A stretch of 32,000 bases of DNA from Zymomonas mobilis subsp. mobilis ATCC 10988 (lineage in GTDB: Bacteria > Pseudomonadota > Alphaproteobacteria > Sphingomonadales > Sphingomonadaceae). The position numbers and the translations under genes were made by a program. Within the stretch, counting starts at the first letter, position 1. Each line of letters begins with the position of its first letter. Where the stretch lies: the NCBI RefSeq assembly GCF_000175255.2, contig NC_017180.1:480-32479 (forward strand), read 5' to 3'. The notes below the pieces were generated by a model. The model saw nothing but the letters and a program-made list of their open reading frames with translations, was not told the DNA's origin and searched no databases. This document shows, one piece after another, positions 3-31,991 of the stretch.

Positions 3-221
3 GCGTTCGGTTCACGTGCACGTTGGACTGCTAAAGATTATTCTGATCTGGATATTGTAATACTTGGTGAGGAGCCTCTCTCCGAAGAATTATTTATGGA
101 TTTGGAAAAAAATTTCACAGAATCGGATTTACCTTGGAAAGTAGATATTGTTGATTGGTACAATTTAGACGACGATTTTAAAAAGATAATAGAAAAAGAT
201 TATGTTGTGATACAAAAAAGA
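3..221 (+). CDS. Minimal nucleotidyltransferase (MNT / NTP_transf_2-type) domain, C-terminal part. The 5' end lies outside the window and there is no stop codon before hsdS.
   Basis: The frame is open from base 3: AFGSRARWTAKDYSDLDIVILGEEPLSEELFMDLEKNFTESDLPWKVDIVDWYNLDDDFKKIIEKDYVVIQKR. The GSRAR-x6-SDLDI motif plus the later DIVD segment is the hallmark of MNT proteins of HEPN/MNT modules. Confidence 0.7.
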
Positions 222-1493: not shown

Positions 1494-4400
1494 GCTTTCT
1501 GTCTGAAAACGAGATCGAAGACTGGGCTTGCGATATTCTGCGCGAATGTGGCTACACCATTGTCTGGGGGCCAGATATTGCCCCCGGTGGCAAAAAGCCG
1601 GAACGCGCCTCGTTATCGGACGTCATTCTGGAAAAACGCCTGCGTGCGGCCATAGACCGTTTGAACCCACACCTTCTCCAAGCCTCGCGGGATGAAACTC
1701 TGCTGGCTCTGATCCGCGAAGACACACCCGACCATGTGGACGAAAACCGCCGCCTGCATGATTATCTGGTCAATGGCGTGCCGGTAGACGTGGTGCGCGA
1801 AGATGGCACACAGTCTGGCGACCGGGTGCGCCTTCTGGATTTTGATACCCCGGAGAATAATGACTTTCTGGTCGTGCGCCAGTTCGTCCTTGAAAAGGAC
1901 GAGGCCAACCGCAGGCCAGACCTCGTTCTGTTCATCAACGGCATGCCGCTTGGAGTGGTGGAACTCAAAAGCCCCAGTTCCGAGAACGCTACGCTGGATT
2001 CCGCATGGAACCAGTTCCAAACCTATCGCAGCCTTATTTCCTCCCTGTTCCGTTTCAATGAAGCGTTGATGATTTCAGATGGTACACAGGCCCGCGTTGG
2101 CTCCCTCACAGCCGGCCGTGACCGCTTCATGCCATGGCGCACCATCAACGGCGAAGACCTGATCGCCAAAAACCATGAGGAAATGGAAACCGTATTGCGG
2201 GGCGTGTTTACGCCACACTGGTTTCTGGGTCTGATCCGTGACTTTGTGCTGTTTGGCGAGAAGAACGGGAGTCCTATCAAAATTCTGGCGGGCTATCACC
2301 AGTTTCATGCCTGCCTGAAGGCTGTGACGCAGACTGTGCGGGCCTCTGCCCCGGATGGAAACCGCAAGGTGGGTGTAGTCTGGCACACGCAGGGGTCCGG
2401 CAAGAGCCTGCTCATGACGTTCTATGCAGGCGTGATCGCCCGCCACCCGGAGATGGAAAACCCCACCATCATTGTGCTGACAGACCGCAATGATCTGGAC
2501 GACCAGCTCTTCGCCACCTTCTCCGGCGCGCAGGCTTTACTCCGTCAGATACCGGAACAGGCGGACAGCCGAGACGACTTGCAGAAACTCCTCCGGCGTA
2601 CCTCGGGCGGTGTCATCTTTACCACCTTGCAGAAGTTCCAGCCCGAAGACGGCGAAACCAGCCTGCCCATGCTGACCGACCGGCGCAATGTGGTGGTCAT
2701 GGCAGATGAGGCGCACCGCAGCCAGTATGGGCTGGAAGCCAAATTCAACCCTAAGACCGGCAAAATGACCTATGGATTTGCCAAATATCTGCGCGACGCC
2801 CTTCCTAATGCCTCCTTTATCGGCTTTACCGGTACACCCATTGAAAATGCCGATGTGAACACACGCGGCATCTTTGGCGACTACATCGACATTTACGACA
2901 TCGCGCAGGCTGTCGAGGATGGCGCAACCGTGCCTATTTATTACGAAAGCCGCCTTGTGCGCATCGAACTGGATGAAGACCTCAAGGACGAGCTGGACGA
3001 TGAACTGGCCGATATTGTCGAAGGGCTTTGCGAGAACGAGGAACACAAGCTCAGCCAGAAATACTCCCGCGTAGAAGCTTTGGTCGGCTCGGAACCCCGC
3101 CTGCGCCGGATTGCCGTAGACCTTGTAACCCATTTTGAAAACCGCCTGAATGCCCTTGAAGGAAAAGGCATGATAGTTGGTATGAGCCGGGCCATTTGTG
3201 TGGCTCTGTATAACGAGATCATCCGCCTGCGCCCCGCATGGCATAGTGATGATGACAATGAAGGAGCCATCAAGGTGGTAATGACCGGCAGTTCATCCGA
3301 CCCTGCCGGGTTGCAGCCCCATATTGGCAAGAAATCCAAAGCCCGACGTGAACTACTGGCAAAGCGCATGAAGGACAACAATGACCCGCTCCGTCTGGTT
3401 ATTGTGCGCGACATGTGGCTGACGGGTTTTGACGTGCCTTCCATGCACACCATGTATGTGGATAAGCCTATGCGCGGGCATGGATTGATGCAGGCCATTG
3501 CCCGCGTCAACCGTGTATTCAAGGGCAAACCCGGTGGTCTGGTGGTAGACTATATCGGCCTCGCTCAGAATCTAAAGGCGGCTCTGGGTGAATATTCAGC
3601 CGGAGACCGCGAGCAGGTCGGCATTGATGAAGGCAAAGCCATCCGCGCCTTGCAGGAACGCTACGAAGTCGTGCGAGCCATGTTCAATCCTGGTCAGGCC
3701 GCTGGCTTTGACTACCGCCCAGCCTTGCAGGACGAGGCAACAGCTAAGACCAAGCTCTCCATCATGGCAGGAGCACTTGACCATATTCTGGGTCAGCAGC
3801 AACGCGCCATGGTAACAGCCAAAAGCGCTGAAGAGCGTAAAGCGATCCAGAAACGCTACCCGGATGGAGTCAAGGCGCTTTCAGTCGCCTTTGCTCTGGC
3901 CTCTGCCAGTGATGAAGCTGCCAGACTGCGCGATGAAATCGGGTTTTTCGAGGCAGTCAGGGCGGCACTGGTCAAAAGTGCGAGCAATGGCAGCGATGGA
4001 CGCAGTGCGCAGGAACTCGAGCTAGCTATCAAGCAACTGGTCAGCAAGGCGGTCATTTCAACCGATATTATCGATATCATGGAAGTCGCAGGCATTGGAA
4101 AACCTGATATTTCCATCCTCTCGGACACCTTCTTGCAGGAAGTGCGGGAAATGCCTCAGCGCAATCTGGCCATTGATGCGCTCAAAAAGCTGCTGGAAGG
4201 CCAGATACGTAGCCGCACACGCACCAACATCACGGAAGCCGAAGCTTTCTCACAAAGACTGGAACAAGCTGTCGCCCGTTACCATGCCAATGCACTCACA
4301 TCTGCCCAGATACTGGATGAACTTATCCGCATGGCGCATGATATGGTCTCCGCTTGCGACCGGGGCGAGGAACTGGGACTGACACAGGAAGAAATCGCCT

Positions 4401-4675
4401 TTTATGACGCACTCGCACAGAATGAAAGCGCCAAGGAGGCCATGGGTGACCCTGGTCTACGCGCTATTGCTACAGCTTTAGTAAAGACCATTCGGGTAAA
4501 TGCTACCGTTGATTGGACCGTCATGGCCCAAGCCCGCGCCAAAATGCGTACATCTGTCAAGCGTCTACTTCGCCGCTATGGATACCCGCCTGATATGCAA
4601 GATGAAGCTGTACAGCACATCCTGCGACAGGCCGAACAATTTGCACCTGTTTGGGCTGAGCAAGGAGGTATATAA
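1490..4675 (+). CDS. hsdR: Type I restriction enzyme R subunit (HsdR), 1061 aa
   Basis: N-terminal PD-(D/E)xK-like nuclease motif (PDLVLFINGMPLGVVELK). SF2 helicase motif I (WHTQGSGKSLLM) and motif II (MADEAHRSQ). The length and position after hsdS are typical. Confidence 0.95.
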   Translation: MSFLSENEIEDWACDILRECGYTIVWGPDIAPGGKKPERASLSDVILEKRLRAAIDRLNPHLLQASRDETLLALIREDTPDHVDENRRLHDYLVNGVPVDVVREDGTQSGDRVRLLDFDTPENNDFLVVRQFVLEKDEANRRPDLVLFINGMPLGVVELKSPSSENATLDSAWNQFQTYRSLISSLFRFNEALMISDGTQARVGSLTAGRDRFMPWRTINGEDLIAKNHEEMETVLRGVFTPHWFLGLIRDFVLFGEKNGSPIKILAGYHQFHACLKAVTQTVRASAPDGNRKVGVVWHTQGSGKSLLMTFYAGVIARHPEMENPTIIVLTDRNDLDDQLFATFSGAQALLRQIPEQADSRDDLQKLLRRTSGGVIFTTLQKFQPEDGETSLPMLTDRRNVVVMADEAHRSQYGLEAKFNPKTGKMTYGFAKYLRDALPNASFIGFTGTPIENADVNTRGIFGDYIDIYDIAQAVEDGATVPIYYESRLVRIELDEDLKDELDDELADIVEGLCENEEHKLSQKYSRVEALVGSEPRLRRIAVDLVTHFENRLNALEGKGMIVGMSRAICVALYNEIIRLRPAWHSDDDNEGAIKVVMTGSSSDPAGLQPHIGKKSKARRELLAKRMKDNNDPLRLVIVRDMWLTGFDVPSMHTMYVDKPMRGHGLMQAIARVNRVFKGKPGGLVVDYIGLAQNLKAALGEYSAGDREQVGIDEGKAIRALQERYEVVRAMFNPGQAAGFDYRPALQDEATAKTKLSIMAGALDHILGQQQRAMVTAKSAEERKAIQKRYPDGVKALSVAFALASASDEAARLRDEIGFFEAVRAALVKSASNGSDGRSAQELELAIKQLVSKAVISTDIIDIMEVAGIGKPDISILSDTFLQEVREMPQRNLAIDALKKLLEGQIRSRTRTNITEAEAFSQRLEQAVARYHANALTSAQILDELIRMAHDMVSACDRGEELGLTQEEIAFYDALAQNESAKEAMGDPGLRAIATALVKTIRVNATVDWTVMAQARAKMRTSVKRLLRRYGYPPDMQDEAVQHILRQAEQFAPVWAEQGGI

Positions 4676-4702: not shown

Positions 4703-5230
4703 GTATTAAAACGCGACCAGCAAGACCATTTTCTTGTAAATGACGAGCAATGCTAAATAGATTGAATTCTTTCCTTGGGGGGGGGCAATTGCAAAAAAAT
4801 AGGAAAACTTTGGGTATTAAGAAGTGGAACGCATTACATAGATAAGCTTGGAAGACTAAGTGATTTTTGGTAGTAATGCGCCTGCCAATAAACGGCTTTT
4901 ATATTGGTTAGCTTTCTCTTTCAGTCGTGTAAGATGTAAATTTTCGCCCTCGGTTGTAGTAATTATAAAAGAAGTTACTCGATCATTTTGAACCTATGAT
5001 AATTCGATTTTTCTAGTAACCTTAATAAATGAAGCAGTCCCGACGTGTCACCATATGCTATAGCAAAATAAGAAAACCTTTCTTCGCCTTTTTGAATCTT
5101 GCTGCTGTAAAATTATGACTACCTTTTTTTGTCAACAGTACCTAATTATGTCATGAATTTTGAAAAGATTTATTAGTATAATAACCGAATATATCGTTCT
5201 ATAGATAACGATAAATATTTTTGTGACATT

Positions 5231-6334
5231 TTATTTCGTAACATTTGAGATAATCTTAGAAATAGCTATTTCAAAAAAATTGAGTTCTTGAGGAGTTGCT
5301 GTCCCAACCCTGATCCAATTCAAATAGTTAGGATCGTTAAAAATACGAACATCTACGCCTTGAGACATGAGGGCGTCTTTCATTTTTTGCGCAGGTCGTA
5401 AAGTATTAATATAAACAAAGGTTCCTTCGCTCGGTAAATAAGGTAATCTATTATTTTTACATATTTTGTAAATTATCTTTCGACAAGAATTTAAATAGTT
5501 TATTGCACCTTGTAAGTAATTAGAATCTCTAAAACAGGCTTGTGCAGCAGCGTAACCCGCTTGATTTCGAGAGGTTGTTGTTAAACTGTACAGTTGTTTA
5601 ATCCGTTGTGGTTGGGCAAGGCAATATCCAATTCTTAGACCTGCAAGTCCATATACTTTTGAAAATGTACGTGTAACGATTATATCAGCATTTTTATTAA
5701 GTAACGGAGCAACTGTTTTTTGAGAAAAATTTGATAAAAGTTCATAATAAGCTTCATCAATAATGATAGGTATCTTTGTAGATATTTCTATACAGAAACT
5801 GAATAATTCAGATATATCAAGTACAGTCCCTGTTGGATTATTGGGATTGCATAAATAAATAAGTGCGGTTTGTGAGGTTATTGCAGATTTTATAGCTTCT
5901 AAGTCGATCTTATGGTTTTTTAATGGTATAAAATCTACAGTTATACCTCGCCGTTGTGCATATGATAGATGAGTAGAATAAGTTGGACTAGGCGCAATAA
6001 TTGTTCCATTCCGTCCAATATCAGCAGAAAGCAAAGACAAAGTATCAAGAGATCCATTTGATAGTCCGACCTGTTCAACTTTAAGATGCTCATACTGCGC
6101 AATTTTTACTCGTAGTTCGGACTCGTCTTCTATGTAATAGGGAGCTTTTGATATACAGGCTGCAATAGCTTGGCGCGCATTGAGCGATGGGCCAAATGGA
6201 TTTTTTGTAACATTTAACCTTGCCCGTATAGGTCTATCGCAGGATAACTGTGCATTTAATTCCTTATTTCCTAAAAAAGTCGGACCCATAATACTGGCAG
6301 CTTGTAAAATCTTACGTCGATTAAGATGCACCAT
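5231..6334 (-). CDS. Class I/II PLP-dependent aminotransferase (HisC/histidinol-phosphate aminotransferase-like) with an N-terminal twin-arginine-like signal
   Basis: The TFSKVYGLAGLRIGY motif carries the PLP-lysine and NPNNPTG is also present. The N-terminus MVHLNRRKILQAASIMGPTFLG resembles a Tat signal (RRxhL followed by a hydrophobic stretch). Confidence 0.8.
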   Translation of the reverse strand: MVHLNRRKILQAASIMGPTFLGNKELNAQLSCDRPIRARLNVTKNPFGPSLNARQAIAACISKAPYYIEDESELRVKIAQYEHLKVEQVGLSNGSLDTLSLLSADIGRNGTIIAPSPTYSTHLSYAQRRGITVDFIPLKNHKIDLEAIKSAITSQTALIYLCNPNNPTGTVLDISELFSFCIEISTKIPIIIDEAYYELLSNFSQKTVAPLLNKNADIIVTRTFSKVYGLAGLRIGYCLAQPQRIKQLYSLTTTSRNQAGYAAAQACFRDSNYLQGAINYLNSCRKIIYKICKNNRLPYLPSEGTFVYINTLRPAQKMKDALMSQGVDVRIFNDPNYLNWIRVGTATPQELNFFEIAISKIISNVTK

Positions 6335-12635: not shown

Positions 12636-14234
12636 ATGCATCTACTAAGCGCTCATATTACTAATTTTCGCCGCTTTGCTGATTTAACTATCAAAGAAAT
12701 ACCTAAAACAGCAAAACTAGTAGTGTTGGCTGGACCGAATGGATCTGGTAAATCATCATTTTTTGATGCCCTTCTTCTTCGATATCGTCTTGACAGTCAT
12801 TTCGGTTGGAATGGCGATCAAAAATATTATAATCGACAACACAGTGAGACAGCTACTTGGGATAAGAGAATTACTGTTGAAACAGACTGTGGTAATACTT
12901 TGAATCGAGGTAACGTTTATGTTCGTACAGCCTATCGAAACGATCCAGATTTTCAAACAACGGGTCTAACACGCCAAGAGAATATCCTCGACAACCCTCC
13001 TCTTCATCGTATGATTGAAGCTGATGCTACTGTCAGTGTGAACTATCAGCGCTTGGCATCACAAGCAATGGAAGATGTTTTTCAAAAAGAATCTCCTACC
13101 ACAACTATAGGACAATTTCGTGAAAACTTAATAGGTAAGATCGGAGTATCATTGAATCGATTGTTCTTAGATCTGAATCTAATTAGTGTAGGTAATCCAG
13201 TAGATCATGGTACCTTTGAATTTAGCAAGGGGATGTCAAAGAAATTTGAATACAAAAACCTATCTGCTGGTGAAAAGGCTGCTTTTGATCTTATTCTTGA
13301 CCTTGTCGTTAAGCGAGATAGCTATAATAACGCAATATACTGTATCGATGAGCCTGAAACACATATGAATACACGGCTGCAGGCTGCTCTTCTCAAAGAA
13401 CTTGTTGAATTAATTCCAGATAACTCCCAGCTCTGGATCGCATCACACTCAATAGGAATGATGCGAAAAGCACGTGAAATGTATGATGCTGATCCTTCAT
13501 CTGTAGCGTTTATCGACTTCAGTGGAGTTGATTTAGACGAACCTGTCGTGCTGACACCAACAAAGCCAACACGCGCATTCTGGAGGAATGTTATGCATGT
13601 TGCGCTTGATGACCTAGCCGAACTAATCGCACCTAAGCAGGTCATCATTTGCGAAGGTAATCCATCTGGAAATGTGCCGCGAAAAAATTCAAATCATGAT
13701 GCTGAAATTTATGGAGCAATTTTTGCTGAAGAATTTCCTGATGCTACTTTTATTTCAGCCGGTAATTCGAAAGAGGTGCAGAATGATTTTATAGGTTTGG
13801 CCGCTGTATTACCGAAACTGGCTACGGGTATAGAAATTATCCGTCTTATAGATCGTGATGATTATACAATTGAAGATATTAACGATTTTAAAAATAAAGG
13901 TATCCAAGTATTAAGCCAACGCCATATTGAATCCTACCTTTATGATGACGAAGTGCTGATTGCTTTGTGTAACTCCGTTGAAAAACCTGAAAAGAGTGCT
14001 GATCTCATAGATGAAAAGAGAAAAATTATCGACGAGATAGTAAAAAATGGAGCTCTAAGTGATGATATAAAAAAAGCTGCCGGAAAATTATCTGTCAAGG
14101 CCAAGAAAATATTGGAGCTAAGACAAGCTGGGAATGACACCCCTGGCTTCGAGCGTAATACACTTTCAAAAATCATTAAACCAAATATGGGCATCTATAA
14201 AAAATTAAGATTTGATATATTTGGCTTGAGATGA
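12636..14234 (+). CDS. ABC/SMC-type ATPase fused to a C-terminal TOPRIM/DUF4435-like domain (OLD-family / fused PARIS-like defence candidate), 532 aa
   Basis: ATPase motifs: Walker A GPNGSGKSS, ABC signature LSAGEKAAF, Walker B AIYCIDEPETHMN and H-loop IASHS. The C-terminal 200 aa carry VIICEG ... DAEIYGAIF ... ISAGNSKEV ... IRLIDRDD, which is the E...G...DxD TOPRIM pattern. Confidence 0.75.
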   Translation: MHLLSAHITNFRRFADLTIKEIPKTAKLVVLAGPNGSGKSSFFDALLLRYRLDSHFGWNGDQKYYNRQHSETATWDKRITVETDCGNTLNRGNVYVRTAYRNDPDFQTTGLTRQENILDNPPLHRMIEADATVSVNYQRLASQAMEDVFQKESPTTTIGQFRENLIGKIGVSLNRLFLDLNLISVGNPVDHGTFEFSKGMSKKFEYKNLSAGEKAAFDLILDLVVKRDSYNNAIYCIDEPETHMNTRLQAALLKELVELIPDNSQLWIASHSIGMMRKAREMYDADPSSVAFIDFSGVDLDEPVVLTPTKPTRAFWRNVMHVALDDLAELIAPKQVIICEGNPSGNVPRKNSNHDAEIYGAIFAEEFPDATFISAGNSKEVQNDFIGLAAVLPKLATGIEIIRLIDRDDYTIEDINDFKNKGIQVLSQRHIESYLYDDEVLIALCNSVEKPEKSADLIDEKRKIIDEIVKNGALSDDIKKAAGKLSVKAKKILELRQAGNDTPGFERNTLSKIIKPNMGIYKKLRFDIFGLR

Positions 14235-17083: not shown

Positions 17084-17335
17084 ATGAGTTCTATTCATGC
17101 GACCGAAGAGCTGACTGAAAAGCTCCAATCCATTATCAGCCTTGAAGAAGAAAAGGCGCGTTTGGATGACCAGATTGCCGAAGCCTATCGTGATCTGAAA
17201 GGTCAAAAATACGACATCAAGAAGGCGAAGTTTGCGGTTAGCCGTTCGCGGAAAGGTCATCCTGAAAACTCTATTCGTATTCTGATCAACCAGATCGTCA
17301 ATGATCGGGCGATGAGCCGGAAGCTTGTTCCGTGA
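17084..17335 (+). CDS. DUF2312 / GapR-like small DNA-binding protein
   Basis: LQSIISLEEEKARLDDQIAEAYRDLKGQKYDIKKAKFAVSRSRK matches the UPF0335/GapR pattern (ERIERLEEEK...VYAEAK..GFD.KA.R). A GGAGAG SD lies upstream. Confidence 0.7.
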   Translation: MSSIHATEELTEKLQSIISLEEEKARLDDQIAEAYRDLKGQKYDIKKAKFAVSRSRKGHPENSIRILINQIVNDRAMSRKLVP

Positions 17336-17384
17336 TCAGAACCGGCATCCCCTTTCTCTATCTCTCTATCTCAAATTCAGGCCT

Positions 17385-17417
17385 GCCACAGCGGAGAATC
17401 TTCGCTGTGGCTTTTTT
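17385..17417 (+). terminator. Rho-independent terminator after the GapR-like gene
   Basis: 9-bp GC-rich stem gccacagcg / cgctgtggc with a 9-nt loop, followed by T6. Confidence 0.8.
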
Positions 17418-17441
17418 GCGTCCAAGACCGGAGCCCGCACA

Positions 17442-19025
17442 ATGACCGCCTCTTCTTCATCATCTCATTTCGTGGCGTCATCTCCTATGTCTCCTTCACT
17501 TAATGCCGACTTGTCCTCTTCTGACTCTGCCTCTTCTGCGACCCTGTCGGACGCCTCTGTTCTTTCTTCAGAGCCTGTCTCTGTATCTTTTGAACAAATG
17601 ACGCCCACAACCAGTCCTTTTATCGACAGGCTAGGCCGTTTCAAGCGCGGCACCTATCGAATAATGTTGATAGAAACCGGCATGCCATATGACAGCGCAA
17701 AGATCATGGCGGATCAGGCCGCAGAACAGCATAAAATAGACCGCATATTCTCTAAATCAATGCCACTGGCCAATAGCGTCGCCCCCGAAATTCCGGCCTC
17801 AAATACCAATCTTGAGGTTACGGCCCCCGCATCAGAAGCGTTCGACGAAATCGAATATTTTGATCAGATGGTGTCTAGCGGGTGTGATCCTGAAACCGCT
17901 GCCGATATCGCCCGTAAAACGGCTGAGACCAGACGCAAAGACCCTCTCGAACGAGCCACCCGCTATAAAATCCGCCGTCGGACTCCTGATCCTGTGCATC
18001 GGGACTCTTATGAGGTTGGCGAGCGCGAGAAGTCGGTCTGGAAACCAGTCAATCCGCAAGAGATCGGTGCCTATCTGGAAGCGGTCGATCAATATTCGAT
18101 CAAAACCAAGGGCTTAAGCGATAAGGCCGTTCGTCTTCTAAAGATGCTGTTTCGGATGGTCGACTTTAAAACTGGCCGTCTGGAACCGACCCTTGATACT
18201 ATTTGCGATAGTGTCGGCTACGCCCGTGCGACGGTCGTCAAATTACTACGACAGCTACAGGATTTAGGCTTCATCCGCTGGATACGCCGGTCAATCAAGA
18301 TCAAGGCGGACGGCAAAGGTCCCCGCCGCAAGCAGACCAGTAACGCCTACGGCTTCTTGTCTCCCAAGGCTTGGCCAGAGTTGGCCAGACAGGTTTTCGA
18401 GCGCGTCATGCGCCGGAGAAATGCGCCTATTCCTGACGATATTGACCACGCCCAAGAGGCGGACAAAGCCGAAACCAAAGCCATAATCGAAAATCTTCCC
18501 CCTGTTGAATTCATGAAAGAAATATCGGGGGCAAAAGCGCCTAATGCGCTCACAGATTCATTGATAGAGCTTGCGAAATCTATCGAGCGGGCAGACCAAC
18601 GGGAACAAGAAGAACCGGCTAAGAAGGCTGCACAGGCCGATCAGGATGAGGTTAAAACATCTTCCCAAATACCTAAGGAGGATACCTCAAAAAAGCCCCA
18701 AATCTCGGACAATCAACGCGAGTTCAATTCTTATACTCTATCCTGTTATAGTTATTTATATAATAACGACGATCACAAATTTGAAACGACAGAAGAGAAT
18801 ATGGACTGTCTCGCTCCTGCTAACGCAGGCTCGACAGGCGTTGTTTTAGACACGAAACCTGAACCTGACCGCTTCACAAAAGAACTTCATACCCTGAACC
18901 TCCGGCATGATCAGGTAGCTGCTATCCTTCAACACAGGAACAAGCGGAAAGAACAGCGCATGATGCCCCTCTCACCAAAAGATATCGCCGACCTCCTCGT
19001 TAAAACCGGACAGATGCGCCCATGA
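17442..19025 (+). CDS. Putative plasmid replication initiator (winged-helix/HTH Rep-like), 527 aa
   Basis: The central segment AVRLLKMLFRMVDFKTGRLEPTLDTICDSVGYARATVVKLLRQLQDLGFIRWIRR...QTSNAYGF is the pattern I associate with alphaproteobacterial plasmid Rep/HTH proteins. The start is moved to 17442 (GGAG 9 nt upstream) because the longest ORF would include the terminator at 17385-17417. The N-terminus is Ser-rich. Confidence 0.5.
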   Translation: MTASSSSSHFVASSPMSPSLNADLSSSDSASSATLSDASVLSSEPVSVSFEQMTPTTSPFIDRLGRFKRGTYRIMLIETGMPYDSAKIMADQAAEQHKIDRIFSKSMPLANSVAPEIPASNTNLEVTAPASEAFDEIEYFDQMVSSGCDPETAADIARKTAETRRKDPLERATRYKIRRRTPDPVHRDSYEVGEREKSVWKPVNPQEIGAYLEAVDQYSIKTKGLSDKAVRLLKMLFRMVDFKTGRLEPTLDTICDSVGYARATVVKLLRQLQDLGFIRWIRRSIKIKADGKGPRRKQTSNAYGFLSPKAWPELARQVFERVMRRRNAPIPDDIDHAQEADKAETKAIIENLPPVEFMKEISGAKAPNALTDSLIELAKSIERADQREQEEPAKKAAQADQDEVKTSSQIPKEDTSKKPQISDNQREFNSYTLSCYSYLYNNDDHKFETTEENMDCLAPANAGSTGVVLDTKPEPDRFTKELHTLNLRHDQVAAILQHRNKRKEQRMMPLSPKDIADLLVKTGQMRP

Positions 19026-19166: not shown

Positions 19167-19841
19167 TTAAATTGGCTTATTCTCTAATAACGTTTCGACA
19201 TGGCTTTTGCTGTTATCCAGCATCCAATCTGCTGTTGGTCTTGAGCGATATTCAATCAAACGAACAATTCTATCCCAATCAGCTTGCAAATCTCTTTCAA
19301 ATATCGGCTCGTGATGGGCTATGCGATTACGCAGCATCCGAATTTCACCCAGATCACTATAAAGGCTCTGTCTATGGTCTTTAATATCTTGCGTCTGGTC
19401 AAGGTTGGGGAATACTTTTAACAAATATGAACGCCAAAGCCTTTTATCATGGCGCTTCGTGAACATAGCCTGCCAGAATACAAAGTTCAGTTCTGGTATT
19501 ACCTTTCCAGTCGTTTCCGCCTTCCAACAAGCTTTGTTTACATCCGTCAATGCGCTGTATCCTGATTTTATAACCGGAAGGCTTCGTAGGAAGCCTTCTG
19601 ACCATGGCCAGCGATCTCCATAAGTATAGGATAGCGCTTCTGCTACAGCATTTCGGATAGCTATTTCTGTTATATGAAGGGGCGCTAGCAATGCGCCGGA
19701 TAGCTGTGCATTCCATACATATAAATCCAAGGCGACAAGATCATCTTTTCCTAATGCCCTAACCTTGTCTTCATATCTTCCAAGTCGGGGAGCCGATAAG
19801 GTCTTTCTAATAGAGATAATCTTATCTTGAATTGACAGCAT
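19167..19841 (-). CDS. Abi_2 family (AbiD/AbiF-like) abortive-infection protein with a HEPN motif
   Basis: N-terminal SAPRLGRYE...LYVWNAQLSGALLAPLHITEIAIRNAV and C-terminal IRMLRNRIAHHEPIF (the R-x4-H HEPN signature) are typical of Abi_2. Confidence 0.8.
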   Translation of the reverse strand: MLSIQDKIISIRKTLSAPRLGRYEDKVRALGKDDLVALDLYVWNAQLSGALLAPLHITEIAIRNAVAEALSYTYGDRWPWSEGFLRSLPVIKSGYSALTDVNKACWKAETTGKVIPELNFVFWQAMFTKRHDKRLWRSYLLKVFPNLDQTQDIKDHRQSLYSDLGEIRMLRNRIAHHEPIFERDLQADWDRIVRLIEYRSRPTADWMLDNSKSHVETLLENKPI

Positions 19842-20128: not shown

Positions 20129-20410
20129 TTAAGCTGCGACTGCTTCAGCAACCATCTCGGGATGAAGACTAATCACCTTCACGTAAGCAATAGCGTAATC
20201 CGGTGCCGTGCTGCGGGTCTGTTCCCAGTCACGCAACGTGCCTACAGATATTTTGAAGCGTGAAGCAAAATCTTTCTGAGATAATCCCAAAGCCGAGCGC
20301 GCTTTTCTGATTAACCGAGCGCGCTGCCCCCGTTCCATGGCTTCCTTGGTTACGTTGAAATCTTCCTCATCCGCAGGGTCAGCAGGAAGAATGATACGCT
20401 CTTTCTTCAC
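20129..20410 (-). CDS. XRE-family HTH antitoxin-like protein
   Basis: ARLIRKARSALGLSQKDFASRFKISVGTLRDWEQTRSTAPDYAIAYVKVISLHPEMV is an HTH_XRE with the WEQ(G/T)R motif common in TA antitoxins. It lies directly downstream of a BrnT-like remnant. Confidence 0.75.
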   Translation of the reverse strand: MKKERIILPADPADEEDFNVTKEAMERGQRARLIRKARSALGLSQKDFASRFKISVGTLRDWEQTRSTAPDYAIAYVKVISLHPEMVAEAVAA

Positions 20411-20568: not shown

Positions 20569-21538
20569 TTATGCCTTATACGGAAATCCCGTATATAAAT
20601 AAAGCCTAAAATTTTGTCGCTGTGATTGAGCATAGTGAAACAAAATTGAACCTGAAAAAGGATGGATTTTTAACCAAGGTAGAAAAGGTAAATAAAGCCG
20701 TTCCTCCTCAGTTCTATCGCAAAAAGAAAGGCAACCAACCCTAAGATTAACCGTCTTTCGTGCGTTTATGAGACTTTTATTTATTAGATCAGGGCGCGAT
20801 GCAGATAAAGATTTTTACCATCAATCTTCATCTGCTGCTTTGCGGCTAAGACAAGCGCCCCGATGATTTTTATGAGACGCTCACAAAATTTGCCGCCTGC
20901 CTGAAAGTAGCCCTGCAATCCGTAGCATTTTTTGAAGACACCAGCTTTACCGAAAAAGACCGCGCCACCTATAAGGAAACACTGAAGCAAATGACCAGCC
21001 TGCGCCAGCTGGCACATGATCTTCAAGACGGAACTCGTAGAACAATGCCTCCTGTATTTTCGTTCGATCATCCATCATTTGCAGATTCCTCCTGCGAAGA
21101 GTGAATCAGTGCTTCACTCTCAAAGTAAGCGCGACTTTTTCAACACTATCGAAGGAAAGCGGAACGTCTGATTTCAGATTACAGAAAAAAGGAAGTGGAC
21201 ATGAACAGAAGCGACTGACAGGGGGAATCAATTAAAAGCTTTAGTCAACATTCAGACGACGTCCATAGACAACATCTAAAATTCACCCGCGACACCGATC
21301 CACGGCATCTAGAGCATATATATTATGCCAGTTTATACCCTACTGCAGTGAAGGAATTGACACATTCGTCAAAAATAACAACATTCGAGACTGATAATGT
21401 CAATAAGTTTTTGCGTAATCCGCCATTATTTATAGTACAGTGAGATATATTTAGCTCATAAATATTTATTTTTAGCTTGAATTAGAAAAATATATTATTG
21501 TACAATCAAATGTATTTTTATAAAATTTTATCTATAAA

Positions 21539-22495
21539 TTATCTATTCAAACGCGCTGTCAGAATTGCCTTTGTCCGCTCGTCACAGAAGGCCGCCTCGA
21601 TGGCGTTTTTGTTAATTATATAGTCCGAGAGGCATGACCCAACGGTCCGCGCAAGGGCGTATTCTTGCAACAGGTCGGTATCAAAGAAACTCGGATCATC
21701 AGTGCCAAGCGTGATGACACATCCGGAATTGGCCAGCCTGCCGATCGGATGAGCGGTTATTGTTGGGTAAAGACCTAGGGCCACGTTACTACTAAGGCAG
21801 ACCTCGAGTGGAATTCGGGACGATGCAATCTGCCGCATCACATTTGGCGATTCGACTGCACGTACTCCATGCCCAACCCTGTCAAGGTTGAGGATTTCAA
21901 TTGCCTCAATAACCGTCTCGGCAGGACAGTGCTCGCCGGCGTGTGCTGTTGCCTTGAGGCCTTCCCCTCGAGCAATACTGAATGCCTCGGCAAAATCGCC
22001 AACGGAATACTGATTTTCGTCACCGGTCAGACCAAAACCGACCAATATGTTCGACCGTATGGATGTCGCCATGCGAGCAGCCTCTATGGCGGCTAGTGGG
22101 CCGAGGTGACGGACTGCAGTGGCGATGAGACAGGAATGCACACCCCACTCCTGACGTGCCCGATCAGCAGCGGCCTGTAGTGCTCTCAGTTGATCAAAAA
22201 ACGGAACGCCCGTGCGGGCGAGATCGGGAGGTGACAGCATGAATTCCACATAAGAACCACCCAACAAAGAGCATCGCTGGAGATATGATGTGGCGACTTG
22301 CTCAAGGTCGTTCGCAGACTTCACTACGGATGTGATCAGATCGTAGGATTTCAAAAAGGAAGGGAAATCATGCCACCCGTAGCGCGCAGCCGAGATTACA
22401 GAGGAGGGGATTGAAACGTTATTGCGTTTAGCAAGTAAAATTACTGTATCGCGGAGCAAGGTCCCCCGAAGGTGAACATGAAGGTCGACTAACAT
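21539..22495 (-). CDS. komA: Adenosine-deaminase-family protein (KomA-like)
   Basis: The metal and catalytic motifs of the A_deaminase fold are all present: DLHVHLRG (HxH), ATAHAGE, RVGHG and LGTDDPSFF. 318 aa with no extra domains. Confidence 0.85.
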   Translation of the reverse strand: MLVDLHVHLRGTLLRDTVILLAKRNNVSIPSSVISAARYGWHDFPSFLKSYDLITSVVKSANDLEQVATSYLQRCSLLGGSYVEFMLSPPDLARTGVPFFDQLRALQAAADRARQEWGVHSCLIATAVRHLGPLAAIEAARMATSIRSNILVGFGLTGDENQYSVGDFAEAFSIARGEGLKATAHAGEHCPAETVIEAIEILNLDRVGHGVRAVESPNVMRQIASSRIPLEVCLSSNVALGLYPTITAHPIGRLANSGCVITLGTDDPSFFDTDLLQEYALARTVGSCLSDYIINKNAIEAAFCDERTKAILTARLNR

Positions 22496-22538
22496 AGCGA
22501 CCGTTGATACAGATTAGACTAGGAGCGTGGAAGTCTAA

Positions 22539-23096
22539 ATGCGTATTAGATTCTTATCAAAGAACAAACATAAGATCGCGGAAGCTGAGAAAATACTCAA
22601 TCCTCTGCATGTCGAGGTTGTTCCTATCACGGTACAGATCGATGAACTTCAGACCATTGATGTCAAGGCGATCATCCGAAACAAAGTGCTACGCGCTTTC
22701 GATAGAATTGGCCATCGACTAATTGTGGAACAGACTTGTCTCTACTTGGACGCCCTGAACGGCTTTCCTGGGGGCCTTACTCAGCCGTTTTGGGATACAC
22801 TTGAAGCAGAGCGCTTCTGCGAGTTGTTCGGTCGTGGGGAAATGCGAGGCGTTACCGCGAAAACGTGGATCGGCTACTGCGACGGTCGGCAAATTTACAA
22901 ATTCGAAGGGGAGATCCGCGGCAGCGTCTCTTCTGAACCGCGTGGCGATCGTGCCTTCCAATGGGACTGCGTTTTCATTCCAGATGGTCATCAGGAAACA
23001 TTTGCTCAGATGGGCGAGAGGAAAAACGAGATATCGATGCGGCGCAGCGCGCTGAATGCCTTTGCGCAACACTTGCGGGAGGCAGCCGATGCTTGA
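22539..23096 (+). CDS. komB: HAM1/RdgB (ITPase)-fold protein with divergent catalytic motifs (KomB-like)
   Basis: FLSKNKHKIAEAE, LNGFPGGLT and KNEISMRRSAL follow the Ham1 family layout. However, the canonical DDSGL, FGYDP and SHR motifs read EQTCL, FQWDC and SMR. Confidence 0.75.
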   Translation: MRIRFLSKNKHKIAEAEKILNPLHVEVVPITVQIDELQTIDVKAIIRNKVLRAFDRIGHRLIVEQTCLYLDALNGFPGGLTQPFWDTLEAERFCELFGRGEMRGVTAKTWIGYCDGRQIYKFEGEIRGSVSSEPRGDRAFQWDCVFIPDGHQETFAQMGERKNEISMRRSALNAFAQHLREAADA

Positions 23097-23895
23097 CTTC
23101 CTTGCGCGCGAGATCCGCGAACATAGGGTGATTCTTTTCGTAGGAGCAGGCCTCTCGCGACCGTTAGGGCTTCCGTCGTGGGGAAAACTCATCAAGCACA
23201 TGGCACAAGAGCTTGGCTTCGACCGCGACGTCCTTGTCGGGCCAAGTGCTGATTATCTGCAGGTCGCAGAGTTTTACAAACTGAAGAAGGGAAACATCGG
23301 CGAATTGCGAAGTTGGATGGACAGGAGTTGGAATGTGTCCGACGATAAGCTACTGGCATCCAAAGTGCACCAGCAGATTGTCGATCTCAAATTTCCCCTC
23401 GTTTACACAACGAATTACGATAACAATCTTGAGCGAGCATTTGAGCTGCACGGAGTACAGGTCTCGAAAATTGCGTCAGTCATAGACATCGCCAATGCGA
23501 AGCCAGGCCATACTCACGTCATTAAGTTCCATGGAGACTTCGCCGACGACAACTCGCTGGTCCTTACCGAGACGGACTACTTCGAGAGGCTAGAATTAAA
23601 ATCGCCGCTCGACCTGAAGCTGCGGTCGGATGTTCTGGGACGCACGATCTTGTTTGTTGGGTACAGCCTGAAGGACCTAAATCTGCGTCTCCTTTTCTAC
23701 AAACTGAAGCGAACCTGGGATGGCACTCCCTATGCAAAGAAGCGTCCGCGGTCGTTTATTTTCCTTATCCGGCCCGACGTCGTTCAGGAGACGGTAATGG
23801 AAAGCCGCGGGGTCTCCCCCATCGTTTCAGATTCTCTTGATCCCGAAGATGCGTTGCCGGCGTTCTTCGAGCGTTTACTAGAATGGACCGGATAG
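23089..23895 (+). CDS. komC: Stand-alone SIR2_2-type (SIR2-like NADase) protein (KomC-like)
   Basis: VILFVGAGLSRPLGLPSWGKL, VYTTNYDNNLERAF, IKFHGD...LVLTETDY and ILFVGYSLKDLNLRLLF are the SIR2_2 motifs. The start at 23089 has a GGGAGG SD 6 nt upstream and overlaps the komB-like stop by 8 nt. Confidence 0.85.
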   Translation: MLDFLAREIREHRVILFVGAGLSRPLGLPSWGKLIKHMAQELGFDRDVLVGPSADYLQVAEFYKLKKGNIGELRSWMDRSWNVSDDKLLASKVHQQIVDLKFPLVYTTNYDNNLERAFELHGVQVSKIASVIDIANAKPGHTHVIKFHGDFADDNSLVLTETDYFERLELKSPLDLKLRSDVLGRTILFVGYSLKDLNLRLLFYKLKRTWDGTPYAKKRPRSFIFLIRPDVVQETVMESRGVSPIVSDSLDPEDALPAFFERLLEWTG

Positions 23896-24160
23896 ACGGC
23901 AGGTTTAGACAGTTTCTTCACGAAAGCTGGCGGTCTGAAAATGTTCTGACTTGACCGTGAGCAGCGCACCGTAACGAGGTCCGGTTTCGAGAAGGTACAC
24001 GGCCAAATTAAACGGTTGCCATGGAGGCGATTGCTGCCTGTCTATTTCATGTTTTCGAACAGACAGGCAACTAAGAGGGCGGATAGGTAGATTTCCAGTT
24101 ATGAGATCAGAAATTTGACAATGGAATTGATGAAAGAAAGTTCGTCTTATGGTCATTATT

Positions 24161-25096
24161 TTAAGAAATTGATTTAGGTAAATCGACCTTCTGCTGATTG
24201 GTAATGCCAAATGGGATGTGAACTGAGGGTGCTACAGCGCTGGCTGACCGTAGATGACCAGACTGATCATCGAAGAAAATATGCGGCTTAAGTACAGATA
24301 AAATTTTTCCTTTTTCGACCCCACCAAGAAAAAAGGCATCATTTGCCATAACATTCCAGCTCTTTAGAGTGCGGAGTGCTCGCTCGTGATAAGGAGCATT
24401 GCGTGCTGTAACTATCGATATCCTAAGCCTATTTTTATAATCAGGATGATTACTTTTATGTTCTTCTTCTATTTTTTGTATTTACGACATTTCTACTAGA
24501 AATTTTTGGAGAGGTCCTGGGTTATGTGGCTGCATAACATTTCGCGTTTCGTGTTCATGAAATCTATCTAAACCCGATGATTGCATCACGGCCTCAGATT
24601 CATCCCCGGCAAGCACTCCATCAAAATCAAATGCGATTCTTAGAGTATTACCTTTTTCGTCGTCTTGAAATGTGGAGTCGAGTACCTGACCGGCTGGATG
24701 TCCCAAATGGATTGCGGCGTCGACGTCTGGCTTATGAGCAGATAAAAATAAAGCAATATTAAAAGCTGGTATGTATTCATATGGGGATTTCCCCTGCATG
24801 AAAATTGCGCGGGTGATATCAAGACCATAATGGGATATCGTATCCATAACCCTCAAACCTGTGTCGGGGTCATTTCTTGATAGCAGCACTACTTCCACAA
24901 GCGGGTCTGCCTTATCAGGACTGAGATCATTTAATGATAACAGGCGCTTTACAAACGGAAAGGCGATACCCGTTGGAAGAGGGTTATGTAAATTTTCCTC
25001 TTGGTACTTTCTATATTTTTCCTCTCCGTCTTGTCTAAAAATGCTGTCTGAAACACTGAGATCAAAAACCGCGCTGGATGCGACACCAACCACCAA
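24161..25096 (-). pseudogene. 5'-nucleotidase (PF06189-like family) interrupted by a single in-frame TAA
   Basis: The N-terminal part (24485-25096) reads VVGVASSAVFDLS...EKYRKYQEENLHNPLPTGIAFPFVKRLLSLN...LRIAFDFDGVLAGDESE. A TAA follows at 24482-24484. The same frame then continues IQKIEEEH...ISIVTARNAPYHERALRTLKSWNVMANDAFFLGGVEKGKIL...PHIFFDDQ to 24161. The start is GTG or TTG, only 2-3 codons after an upstream stop. Confidence 0.75.
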
Positions 25097-25307: not shown

Positions 25308-26116
25308 GGTTCTGTTGACAAAGGTTATAATTTAAGATTTTTAGAGACAAATTGAGAACAAGTTTTGTAGGGAAGACAGGATGCGAGGAGATCTGACGGA
25401 CGCGGAATGGCAGATAATAGAGGGTCTTCTTCCAAGCGAACGAGGCCGCTGCGCACGTCCCGCAAAAAGTAATCGGTTATTCTCAACGTATGCTTTATGT
25501 GCTTCGAACAGGCTGCCCGTGGCGAGACATGCATGAACGTTATGGGAAATGGAATTCGGTCTATGTTCGGTTTCCTAGATGGGCGGAACAGGGTGTCTGG
25601 GATGCTCTTCTTGAAACCCTGGTTGACCTTGGCCTGACAGATGACTGGCAACATATGATAGATAGTACGATTATTCGCGCCCACAGCCAAACGGCTGGCG
25701 CAAAAAGGGGACGGATAAGGAAGGCTTTGGTCAAAGCCGCGGAGGCTTTACGAGCAAGATCCACGCCCGTTCCGATGGTCAAGGCCGCCCTCTAACTTTC
25801 GAACTTACAGGTGGTGAGGTCCCTGATTATTCTGGCCCTTGTGACAACGCCCCGCTGTTTTCTCGCCGATAAAGGATATTATAGCGATAGGTTATGCGAA
25901 AAACTACTCTTTCGAGGCATCCTTCCTGTTATTCCGCCTTGTTCCAATCGAAAAAAGCCTATTCCTTATAATCTCCAGCACTACAAAGATCGTCATTGTA
26001 TTGAGCGGATGTTTAATAAGCTGAAGCAGTTCAGACGTATTGCCAGACGCTATGACAAAACCAGAAAATCTTTCCTCGCCTTTCTTCAGATCGATCCCAT
26101 GCCCTTTGGTAGAACC
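25308..26116 (+). mobile_element. IS5-family (IS427-group-like) element, about 0.8 kb, with a multiply frameshifted transposase
   Basis: The transposase pieces lie in different frames. They read MRGDLTDAEWQIIEGLLPSERGR (25380-), MLYVLRTGCPWRDMHERYGKWNSVYVRF.RWAEQGVWDALL...IDSTIIRAHSQTAGAK (25490-), GGFTSKIHARSDGQGRPLTFELTGGE, and ADKGYYSDRLCEKLLFRGILPVIPP.SNRKKPI...KDRHCIERMFNKLKQFRRIARRYDKT. The IR-like ends are ggttctgttgacaaagg (25308) and ccctttggtagaacc (26102-26116). Boundaries are approximate. Confidence 0.7.
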
Positions 26117-26278
26117 AAGCAAAAATACCTATGATTGTTGACAACAACATCCCCCAATTAACGGACATGGCAGTATTTCTCTCAGTTTCTTAACGATCTA
26201 ACATGAAAACACGTGAAATACGTCGTTTGATTTTATAGATAGCAGACATTATTAAAGTGGATTTTGAGAAGTTTCAGT

Positions 26279-26797
26279 ATGCTCATTGTATTCACAGGAT
26301 TGCCTGGGTGTGGGAAAACGACAATTGCTCAGCTTCTTTCCAAAAAATTGTCGGCTGTGTATATTCGTGTAGATGAGATCGAACAGGCAATTAAATATTC
26401 GAATGTTTTACGAGATGACATTGGTTCAGTAGGTTACGAAGTGGCGAGCTACCTGGCGCGTTCAAATTTAAATTTGGGAACAATGGTTATCGTGGATTGT
26501 GTGAACCCAGTTTTCGAAAGCCGAGAAATGTTTTATCAAACCGGAAAAGAAACCAATTCCTCAGTCATAGATGTCGAAGTCGTGTGCTCTGATCCTGTAG
26601 AACACAGGCGTCGGATTGAATTTCGATTGGCGGACATTCCTGGACACAAAGTCCCAGAATGGGATGCCATTTGGGAGATGGAATATACACCATGGTCTAG
26701 CCCTCGCCTAATCATCGACACCGCGATATGCTCTAGTGATGATGCATTAAGTAAAATTTCTGATTATTTGAGGTTAAAGTCTCGCTCGATTACATAG
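26279..26797 (+). CDS. P-loop kinase-like protein (AAA_33 type), substrate unknown
   Basis: MLIVFTGLPGCGKTTIAQLLSKKL (Walker A), then VIVDCVNP (Walker B-like); about 170 aa. The longest ORF begins at a TTG at 26264. Confidence 0.7.
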   Translation: MLIVFTGLPGCGKTTIAQLLSKKLSAVYIRVDEIEQAIKYSNVLRDDIGSVGYEVASYLARSNLNLGTMVIVDCVNPVFESREMFYQTGKETNSSVIDVEVVCSDPVEHRRRIEFRLADIPGHKVPEWDAIWEMEYTPWSSPRLIIDTAICSSDDALSKISDYLRLKSRSIT

Positions 26798-30398: not shown

Positions 30399-31991
30399 AT
30401 GGCTCGCAGTCGTCTATCTAAAAATTCGGATGTAGCTCCAGCTTCCAAGCAAGCAAGCAAGGCCAAGACAGCGACTGCGACATTAGGATTTGAACAGCAG
30501 ATGTTTCTTGCTGCTGACAAGCTGCGCAAGAACCTTGAACCCTCAGATTACAAGCATGTTGCTCTTGGCCTAATCTTTCTGCGCTATATCTCCACTGCCT
30601 TTGAAGCCCGCCATGTTGCCTTGATGCTAGACGATCCCGCAGCAGCGGAAGACCCAGACGAATATCTAGCTGAAAATATCTTCTGGGTGCCGGAGACTGC
30701 TCGTTGGTCTCATCTTAGGGATAATGCCCGCTCCCCTAGCATCGGTAAGATAATTGATGAAGCCATGCTGGCCATTGAAAAAGCCAATCCGGAACAGCTC
30801 AAGGGTGTTCTCCCCAAGGATTACGGGCGGCCTGCCCTTGATAGCGTGATGCTGGGTGAGTTGATAGACCTGATCTCCGACATAGGCATGGGCGATACGG
30901 ACGACAAGGCGCGGGACGTGTTGGGTCGGGTCTATGAATACTTCCTTGGCGGGTTTGCTGGAGCTGAAGGCAAGCGCGGGGGCGAGTTTTACACGCCGTC
31001 CAGCGTGGTACGCACGCTAGTTTCCATGCTCGAACCCTACAAGGGCCGGGTGTATGACCCATGCTGTGGCTCTGGTGGTATGTTCGTGCAGTCTGAACGC
31101 TTTGTGGAAACCCATGGTGGCAAGCTGGGTGACATTGCCATTTACGGGCAGGAAAGCAACCACACTACGTGGCGTCTGGCTCGCATGAACCTTGCTGTGC
31201 GGGGTATTGGCGCGGATATCCGCTGGAACAATGAAGGCAGCTTTCTGCGCGATGAACTAAAAGACCTGCGCTTTGACTATATTCTGGCCAACCCGCCCTT
31301 TAACGTGTCGGACTGGTGGAATGCGTCACTAGAGGAAGACCCGCGCTGGCAGTATGGCAAACCGCCAGCAGGCAATGCCAACTATGCGTGGCTCCAACAT
31401 ATCCTGTGGCATCTGGCCCCCGACGGTACCGCTGGCGTGGTGCTGGCCAATGGTTCCATGTCCTCAAACCAGAACAGCGAAGGGGAAATTCGCCGCCGGA
31501 TGGTGGAAGCAGATGTTGTGGACTGCATGGTCGCCCTGCCCGGTCAGCTTTTTTATTCCACCCAGATTCCGGCCTGCCTGTGGTTCCTCACCCGCACCAA
31601 GAAGCAAAAAGGCTGGCGAGATCGGGGCGGAGAAATCCTGTTTATTGATGCCCGCAAGCTGGGCAAGCTTGTGGACCGCACCCGCCGGGAACTGACAGAC
31701 GAGGACGTGGCCCGCATTGCCGACACCTACCACGCATGGCGTGGAGAAAAGGACGCGGGCACATATGAGGATATTTCCGGTTTTTGCAAATCCGCTACAC
31801 TGGATGAAGTGGCGCATCAAGGCTTTGTGCTAACACCGGGCCGCTACGTGGGAGCAGAGGAAGTCGAAGAAGACAGCGTGCCATTTACTGAACGCTTCGC
31901 AGCCCTTGAGAAGACCCTGAAGGAGCAGTTTGCGCAGGGTGAAGCACTGAACGCGAAAATCATTGGCTCTTTGCGTCTAATTATACGATAA
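30399..31991 (+). CDS. hsdM: Type I restriction-modification DNA methyltransferase subunit HsdM
   Basis: HsdM_N-like [37 protein letters not shown], the AdoMet motif [12 protein letters not shown] and the catalytic ILANPPFN. Confidence 0.95.

Follow-up and report, generated by a model that had tools for sequence, protein, structure and literature searches.

Does a trio of adjacent genes on a small Zymomonas plasmid, encoding an adenosine-deaminase-family protein, a HAM1-like protein and a SIR2-like protein, amount to a complete Kongming (KomABC) defence cassette, and how closely does it keep to the published system? The trio lies in a stretch of 32,000 nt from Zymomonas mobilis subsp. mobilis ATCC 10988 (contig NC_017180.1), which we call the window and whose numbering is used for all coordinates. 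Kongming was described in Escherichia coli NCTC13216, where KomA (PF00962), KomB (PF01725) and KomC (PF13289) protect against many coliphages (Zeng et al., bioRxiv 10.1101/2024.12.20.629578). E. coli KomA deaminates deoxyadenosine monophosphate (dAMP) and, more weakly, the diphosphate (dADP), and a phage deoxynucleoside monophosphate (dNMP) kinase together with the host nucleoside diphosphate kinase (NDK) completes the synthesis of deoxyinosine triphosphate (dITP) (bioRxiv 10.1101/2024.12.20.629578). In turn, dITP binds KomB and switches on the NADase of KomC inside a KomBC filament, which leads to depletion of nicotinamide adenine dinucleotide (NAD+) (PMC13454610). Structures of KomBC from cryo-electron microscopy are available (8zsf/8zsg/8zsh/8zsi/9xvc; PMC13454610).

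An initial annotation, made from the letters of the window alone, had proposed Kongming for the trio and given a mechanism of phage dNMP kinase, dITP and NADase that agrees with the published accounts (bioRxiv 10.1101/2024.12.20.629578; PMC13454610). Its observation and its interpretation are both correct, but Kongming is already published and structurally solved. We consider it highly probable that the trio is an intact Kongming abortive-infection cassette carried by a circular Zymomonas-type plasmid of ~32.5 kb.

The putative sensor and effector genes

Kongming is defined by adjacent genes of the families PF00962, PF01725 and PF13289, and these are the families that a Pfam search assigns to the trio, with positions as first annotated. 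The profile searches that the initial annotation had proposed covered all three proteins, as listed here together with the signals around them:

21539..22495, minus strand: komA, adenosine-deaminase-family protein, 318 aa; Pfam PF00962 (A_deaminase) 1.8e-69, full-length match
22496..22538, no strand: komA-komB divergent intergenic region, 43 bp, containing the komB Shine-Dalgarno (SD)-like GGAG/GGAAG
22539..23096, plus strand: komB, HAM1/ITPase-fold protein, 185 aa; Pfam PF01725 (Ham1p_like) 8.6e-36, full domain
23089..23895, plus strand: komC, SIR2_2 protein, 268 aa; Pfam PF13289 (SIR2_2) 1.5e-26, full domain
23077..23096, plus strand: coupling signal, GGGAGG at 23077-23082, a 6-nt spacer and the komC ATG over the komB stop
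21160..24029, no strand: extent of the Kongming cassette, the trio plus short flanks, ~2.9 kb; 91.6% DNA identity to metagenome contigs L087 and L088
~21004..21174, no strand: IS1182/ISGdi16-like transposase fragment at the left cassette edge; 94-96% identity to Acetobacter plasmids

The Kongming identity is carried above all by KomB and KomC, which align end to end with the solved E. coli proteins. KomB matches PDB 8zsg at 7e-64 with 98/182 residues identical (54%), and KomC matches PDB 8zsf at 1.1e-83 with 128/256 residues identical (50%); the residues essential in E. coli are kept. That is, KomB retains N9, H11, K12, E15, K49, T66, F140, Q141, W142 and R168, with K8 in place of R8. In E. 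coli KomB, mutating N9, K12 or E15 (bioRxiv 10.1101/2024.12.20.629578), or R8, K49, T66, F140, Q141 or W142, abolishes or reduces defence. H11 and R168 touch the hypoxanthine base there, and Q141 and W142 are held to impose the preference for a 2'-deoxy sugar. Among the 120 closest homologues of the window KomB, F140, Q141 and W142 are invariant.

One hallmark position departs from the published protein. Residue 65 of the window KomB is Gln; the aligned residue in PH1917 and Mj0226 is the D of their IEDSG motif. Both are active inosine triphosphate pyrophosphatases (ITPases), the fold parents of KomB, and have F-G/A-Y for its F-Q-W. Judged from this lost acid, KomB is catalytically dead, as is expected of a sensor rather than a hydrolase. 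The protein also scores below every ITPase equivalog cutoff, though ITPase models of NCBIfam do match it. In defensive HAM1 proteins, the place of the catalytic Asp has been said to be taken invariably by His (bioRxiv 10.1101/2024.12.20.629578). This statement does not hold, and a large Gln clade exists: the 120 closest homologues have Gln in 97 cases and His in 23. Since all 14 Gln65 loci still carry both KomC and KomA, we take His for a trait of one lineage rather than a mark that defines the system; the loss of the acid, on which function turns, applies to Gln as well.

The effector side is preserved too. KomC has N109, H148 and D196 as the equivalents of E. coli N107, H146 and D194, and the motifs that the initial annotation had picked out (TTNYD and FHGD) are found at 107 and 147. 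R72, D76 and R77, which serve in the filament, have their counterparts (D78 and R79 here for D76 and R77), and loop1 reads DFADD. By analogy with E. coli, the window proteins may form filaments. At the interface, E56, K67 and E169 of E. coli are replaced by Q, N and K, respectively. Pfam finds no second domain in the 268 aa, and PADLOC 2.0.0 sees KomC through generic SIR2 models only, i.e. ThsA (5.2e-32), LmuA and Dsr.

The two genes are coupled in the manner first annotated. The komB stop codon (TGA, 23094-23096) and the komC start share an overlap of 8 nt (ATGCTTGA, 23089-23096); the junction sequence ends in TTGCGGGAGGCAGCCGATGCTTGA, the GGGAGG SD lies 6 nt 5' of the komC ATG at 23089, and the stretch 23070-23100 as a whole is ACTTGCGGGAGGCAGCCGATGCTTGACTTC. 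The mechanical list of open reading frames (ORFs) begins komC at 23056, but homologue alignments and independent gene calls of 268 aa begin at 23089, which we therefore take as the true start. Matches to komB and komC overlap likewise (distance 0) in related loci (L001-L005, L013, L015, L016, L026). In our sample of related loci, namely 80 GTDB loci encoding a KomB relative, komC directly follows komB in 80/80, so the arrangement is not due to chance. The initial annotation had said that its proposal would fail if the genes did not co-occur in other genomes; they clearly do. Overlap, SD and adjacency together point indirectly to a stable KomB-KomC complex.

Other systems with a similar effector fit less well. 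The next-best structures for both proteins (1.7e-27 for KomB, 5.5e-38 for KomC) belong to the PDB 9v0g family ('xanthosine/inosine triphosphate pyrophosphatase' and 'NAD-dependent protein deacetylase'), which also pairs a HAM1 partner with a SIR2 protein of ~270 aa. Its HAM1 has His at the dead position and F-H-W against F-Q-W in the window, and it is far more distant than KomBC; we found no publication describing the complex. Thoeris ThsA shares a homologous SIR2 NADase domain (PADLOC ThsA as above; PDB 6lhx 1.4e-20) and the logic of signal-activated NAD+ depletion. However, ThsA senses a cyclic ADP-ribose-type signal from a TIR protein through a fused SLOG domain, whereas the predicted sensor in the window is a separate HAM1 protein. 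Thoeris is marked by a TIR-domain signal synthase and by a ThsA with SLOG (or Macro/TM) as its sensor domain. The ThsA model covers the SIR2 part only (13-212 of 478), and, as initially annotated, no TIR, SLOG, HerA, pAgo or STAND match occurs among the window ORFs scanned with Pfam and PADLOC.

Origin of the deaminase and layout of related loci

KomA has all of its catalytic and metal residues (H6, H8, H185/E188, H209 and D266/D267), and the motifs that contain them (HVH 6-8, HAGE 185, GHG 208 and TDDP 265) are intact, as the initial annotation had noted. Arg10 stands in an HxH-L-R-G motif. The TIGR01430 adenosine deaminase model of NCBIfam scores the protein at 262.6 bits against a cutoff of 216.55, and CARF_ADA (9.5e-31) is the sole PADLOC route to it. 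Two known groups of defence deaminases, RADAR RdrB and CRISPR-associated Cad1, are likewise members of the adenosine deaminase (ADA) family acting on adenine nucleotides. Those enzymes, however, are large, with several domains or an oligomeric build; they convert bulk ATP or dATP and have an AAA+ ATPase or a CARF domain as partner, neither of which accompanies the deaminase here. The window deaminase is compact (318 aa), and the trio and its neighbours gave zero PADLOC matches to RdrA or RdrB, in line with the absence of RdrA claimed at the outset.

The origin of KomA sets the locus apart from E. coli. A PDB search found no deposited KomA structure; the closest solved relatives are the cog1816 deaminases PA0148 (3ou8, 1e-40) and A. 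aurescens AAur_1117 (3rys, 4.4e-39), which have Glu/Asp after HxH-L where KomA has Arg. PA0148 reportedly deaminates free adenine. No complete E. coli genome gave a match to the trio in a distant blastn search, and the PDB sequences of KomB and KomC were used instead. As proxies for E. coli-type KomA we took three loci (L019, L025 and L028), whose KomB and KomC share 71-75% identity with the E. coli proteins. The window KomA is ~27% identical to these proxies (23-30% across 14 loci with a co-directional komA). In a neighbour-joining tree with 100 bootstraps and five solved deaminases included, window-type KomA joins PA0148 and AAur_1117 in 93/100 replicates and E. coli-type KomA in 6/100. Identity and bootstraps thus do not support orthology to E. 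coli KomA. The direct comparison with the published Kom proteins, which the initial annotation had called for, accordingly bears out two of the three, with KomA belonging to another lineage.

The residue that follows HxH-L varies between these enzymes. Mouse ADA and bacterial Add have Asp there, PA0148 has Glu and E. coli-type KomA has Asn; in window-type KomA it is Arg, in 105/105 full-length homologues. The Asp of mouse ADA makes contact with the hydroxyls of the ribose. Both KomA lineages lack the acid, which may make room for a 5'-phosphate. From the tree placement beside PA0148, the KomA deaminase appears to have been recruited separately, at least twice, from different adenosine/adenine deaminase branches, with the acid lost each time. 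This fits the published view of KomA as a loosely conserved partner for which other nucleotide enzymes can stand in (bioRxiv 10.1101/2024.12.20.629578).

The layout of the related loci follows the same division. A KomA that is 39-73% identical to the window protein lies directly upstream in divergent orientation in 20/80 loci, and in co-directional orientation in one more. Another 14/80 loci have a co-directional upstream KomA that is only 23-30% identical to the window protein, and 44/80 (mostly Pantoea) are without KomA. The published system belongs to the co-directional group, given the 71-75% identity of E. coli KomB and KomC to members of that group. Gln65 is seen only with the divergent KomA lineage (14/14 loci). 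The divergent deaminase was rightly described in the initial annotation, and it is not a local rearrangement but a lineage trait, because the 43-bp spacer between komA and komB, with a conserved GATA...GAAGTGGAAG block, is kept across four genera (L001-L004; the length fully, the sequence partly). Since this spacer also contains the SD-like signal of komB, promoters must overlap the coding regions. Across 22 loci of the window lineage there is no conserved fourth gene.

Set beside E. coli Kongming, then, the window locus has the same three families, komC directly after komB, the dITP-pocket residues, the dead KomB position, the N/H/D set of KomC and the R77/D76 filament residues. It differs in its deaminase (another ADA branch, and divergent rather than co-operonic), in Gln65 and K8 of KomB, in the three KomC interface residues and in its alphaproteobacterial plasmid setting. 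On these comparisons it is best described as a lineage variant of known Kongming, in which ligand pocket and effector chemistry are conserved while deaminase origin, orientation and one sensor hallmark residue differ.

Two features of the related loci are recorded in passing. Near three loci of the window lineage (L001 3991-6756, L010 11063-13618 and L026 350-1072), a large protein recurs whose N-terminus has a SIR2-like GAGAS motif, probably through co-location in defence islands. In a distant Kongming locus (L093), a small TIR_2-domain gene at 5122-5538 stands directly beside a divergent KomA that is 48% identical to the window protein.

Mobility, proposed mechanism and competing explanations

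The trio moves as a unit. The segment 21160-24029 is 91.6% identical to the two metagenome contigs listed above, where the flanking genes differ (one flank has a HEPN_Apea gene), and an Acetobacter fabarum assembly (L090) has the trio as well, with HAM1 and SIR2 genes divergent from a komA whose product is 91% identical to the window protein. Between the window and its relatives, the ratio of nonsynonymous to synonymous substitution rates (dN/dS) is 0.12-0.19 over the three genes (0.12-0.16 for komA and 0.14-0.19 for komC). Several independent assemblies share an identical KomB, and their gene calls for KomA and KomC have the lengths seen here. Because copies at 91.6% identity occur in other contexts, no fourth gene is shared and dN/dS is low, the trio is a self-contained, horizontally moving cassette under purifying selection. 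Its guanine-cytosine (GC) content of 0.521 exceeds that of the left (0.441) and right (0.398) flanks, and insertion sequence (IS) debris adjoins it, both as initially annotated. The fragment at ~21004-21174 coincides with an annotated IS1182-like ISGdi16-family transposase in Acetobacter plasmids, and pieces of an IS4/5-family transposase lie at 25381-26134. Neither terminal repeats nor target duplications turned up when the surroundings of the cassette were searched for repeats, and an Rfam search of the window found no match.

If the window proteins work as their E. coli counterparts do, defence would proceed as follows. Zn-dependent KomA would deaminate dAMP or dADP to deoxyinosine nucleotides, which the dNMP kinase of an infecting phage and the host NDK would convert to dITP. 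KomB, having lost its catalytic acid (Gln65), would bind dITP and hence sense rather than hydrolyse it. The overlapping start and stop codons would supply stoichiometric amounts of KomB and KomC, which would form a complex. Finally, the ligand would remodel this complex, and the SIR2 domain of KomC would hydrolyse NAD+ and thereby stop the infected cell.

Several observations weigh against an intact Kongming system that works in this way. The window KomB has Gln65 where the published KomB has His65. E56 and E169 of E. coli KomC are Q and K here, and charge-reversal mutants of these residues impair Kongming there; E169K is one of them, and the window KomC has K at that position. KomA shares only ~27% identity with the E. 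coli type and stands among PA0148-like deaminases, of which PA0148 itself reportedly acts on free adenine, so that dAMP or dADP is no more than a predicted substrate. A sigma-70 scan of the 43-bp divergent region gave a weak sigma-70-like match only, with no convincing promoter in either direction. PADLOC, which the initial annotation had suggested running, reaches KomC and KomA through the generic and CARF_ADA models, but no model of version 2.0.0 (a 2023 release) recognises KomB. More generally, Kongming function in the window lineage rests on sequence comparison and on analogy with E. coli.

How much do these points favour other explanations? The same architecture could house a different chemistry, put together independently with a PA0148-like enzyme of adenine-deaminase type and with Gln65 in the sensor, and using another deaminase substrate, another trigger or a signal other than dITP. 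The bootstraps that place KomA with PA0148 and AAur_1117 rather than with the E. coli type speak for this, as do the invariant Arg in place of Asp/Glu after HxH-L, the restriction of Gln65 to loci with the window KomA lineage and the published remark that KomA is replaceable. Yet the KomB pocket that reads hypoxanthine, 2'-deoxyribose and triphosphate is conserved throughout, which argues for the same ligand, and the loss of the acid in both KomA lineages (to Arg and to Asn) looks like convergence on a phosphorylated substrate. We regard a different chemistry as improbable. A related version has a slightly better, though still small, chance of being right: in an alphaproteobacterial 'Arg/Gln' Kongming of independent assembly, the Arg would have re-tooled a PA0148-like deaminase for nucleotides alongside a Gln65 sensor and divergent control. 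Such a system could depart from E. coli in its substrate range, its trigger or its control of autoimmunity, and the 5'-nucleotidases found beside Kongming loci could act as a safety valve that removes dAMP or deoxyinosine monophosphate (dIMP).

It is considerably less probable still that the cassette is a silent or decaying remnant, stranded between IS debris and a pseudogene. An IS fragment does touch the left edge, the adjoining 5'-nucleotidase gene has a nonsense codon, the 43-bp region shows no clear sigma-70-type promoter and KomC carries the Lys that impairs the E. coli system. Against this, none of the three ORFs is shortened in comparison with its homologues, their catalytic residues are intact, their dN/dS values and uniform lengths in independent assemblies are those given above, and the layout of the 43-bp intergenic region is kept across genera. 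As for housekeeping purine metabolism, in which an ITP/XTP pyrophosphatase and an adenosine deaminase would be no more than neighbours of a sirtuin, KomA is above the TIGR01430 cutoff and the HAM1 protein matches ITPase models. But the HAM1 protein falls short of every equivalog cutoff and lacks the catalytic Asp, and its gene shows translational coupling to that of a SIR2_2 NADase with 50% identity to KomC. Unlike housekeeping deaminases and ITPases, moreover, komA and komB are linked to a SIR2 gene on a plasmid-borne, horizontally moving cassette, and we give this explanation practically no credence. An intact Kongming cassette thus accounts best for the trio.

With this locus, Kongming is seen on a small natural plasmid from the gene pool of Zymomonas and acetic-acid bacteria, organisms of industrial fermentation that face phage attack and barriers to DNA uptake. 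The Gln65 clade and the apparently repeated recruitment of deaminases sharpen the existing picture of Kongming and invite simple tests by mutation, without amounting to a new kind of system.

The plasmid and its other genes

KomB is also encoded on VFOI01000003.1 (GCA_006716005.1; 32,458 bp), which begins at window position 17805. The window is therefore a rotated view of a circular replicon of ~32.5 kb. The backbone is 85-92% identical to Zymomonas mobilis plasmids of 30-34 kb (the shared part being ~9.8-19.2 kb), and none of those plasmids has the Kongming cassette. The best plasmid match for KomC is in Novosphingobium humi, at 83%. Profile scans find ParA and a TraY-like protein on the replicon, and its further defence genes bear out the description in the initial annotation. 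The features outside the cassette are:

96-4675, window start: Type I restriction-modification genes hsdS and hsdR
12636-14234, plus strand: AriAB-like ATPase, 532 aa, AAA_21/AAA_15; PADLOC fused AriAB (PARIS-like) 1.8e-29
17325-19025, plus strand: Rep-like protein, 566 aa, with a Ser-rich N-terminus and a winged-helix/HTH_36 region
19167-19841, minus strand: Abi_2/HEPN-like protein; PADLOC PD-T4-5 1.8e-17
20129-20410, minus strand: small XRE/MqsA-like helix-turn-helix protein, beside the Abi_2 gene and between the Rep-like gene and the cassette
24161..25096, minus strand: PF06189 5'-nucleotidase, neighbour outside the cassette; PADLOC candidate PDC-S08; in-frame TAA at 24482-24484
30399-31991, window end: Type I restriction-modification gene hsdM

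As the replicon is circular, hsdM, hsdS and hsdR adjoin across the junction. The ATPase at 12636-14234, which also has weaker PADLOC matches to PtuA and GajA, is possibly a further defence gene. Past the IS debris, 2.4 kb downstream of komC, the plus strand encodes at 26264-26797 a small protein that resembles P-loop kinases (AAA_33, APS-kinase-like, Zeta-like; weak PADLOC VakA match); nothing ties it to Kongming.

The 5'-nucleotidase gene, convergent with komC, matches PF06189 at 9.8e-83 and PDC-S08 at 5.5e-90. Its frame is intact but for the single TAA, an AAA/AGA-to-TAA change at a position where homologues have K or R. Four other independent assemblies have the same split gene calls, so the nonsense codon is not a sequencing error. 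The nearest intact homologue, in a very large and very conserved family, is from Gluconobacter sp. OJB (95%). We considered the gene as a fourth component and rejected it: it lies outside the 91.6% cassette, is absent from the closest relatives, and differs from the trio in GC content and, with its Gluconobacter homologue, in nearest relative. That it is 71% identical to the L058 copy reflects only the high conservation of the family.

PF06189 genes nevertheless adjoin other Kongming loci (L028, L058, L074, L077 and L078), some of which also have KomA, and 5'-nucleotidase is listed among the genes associated with KomBC (bioRxiv 10.1101/2024.12.20.629578). A plausible accessory role for such recurring 5'-nucleotidases would be to drain dAMP or dIMP, e.g. 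to limit autoimmunity. In L093, an unrelated gene with Metallophos and 5_nucleotid_C domains (407-2074) lies just past komC on the same strand.

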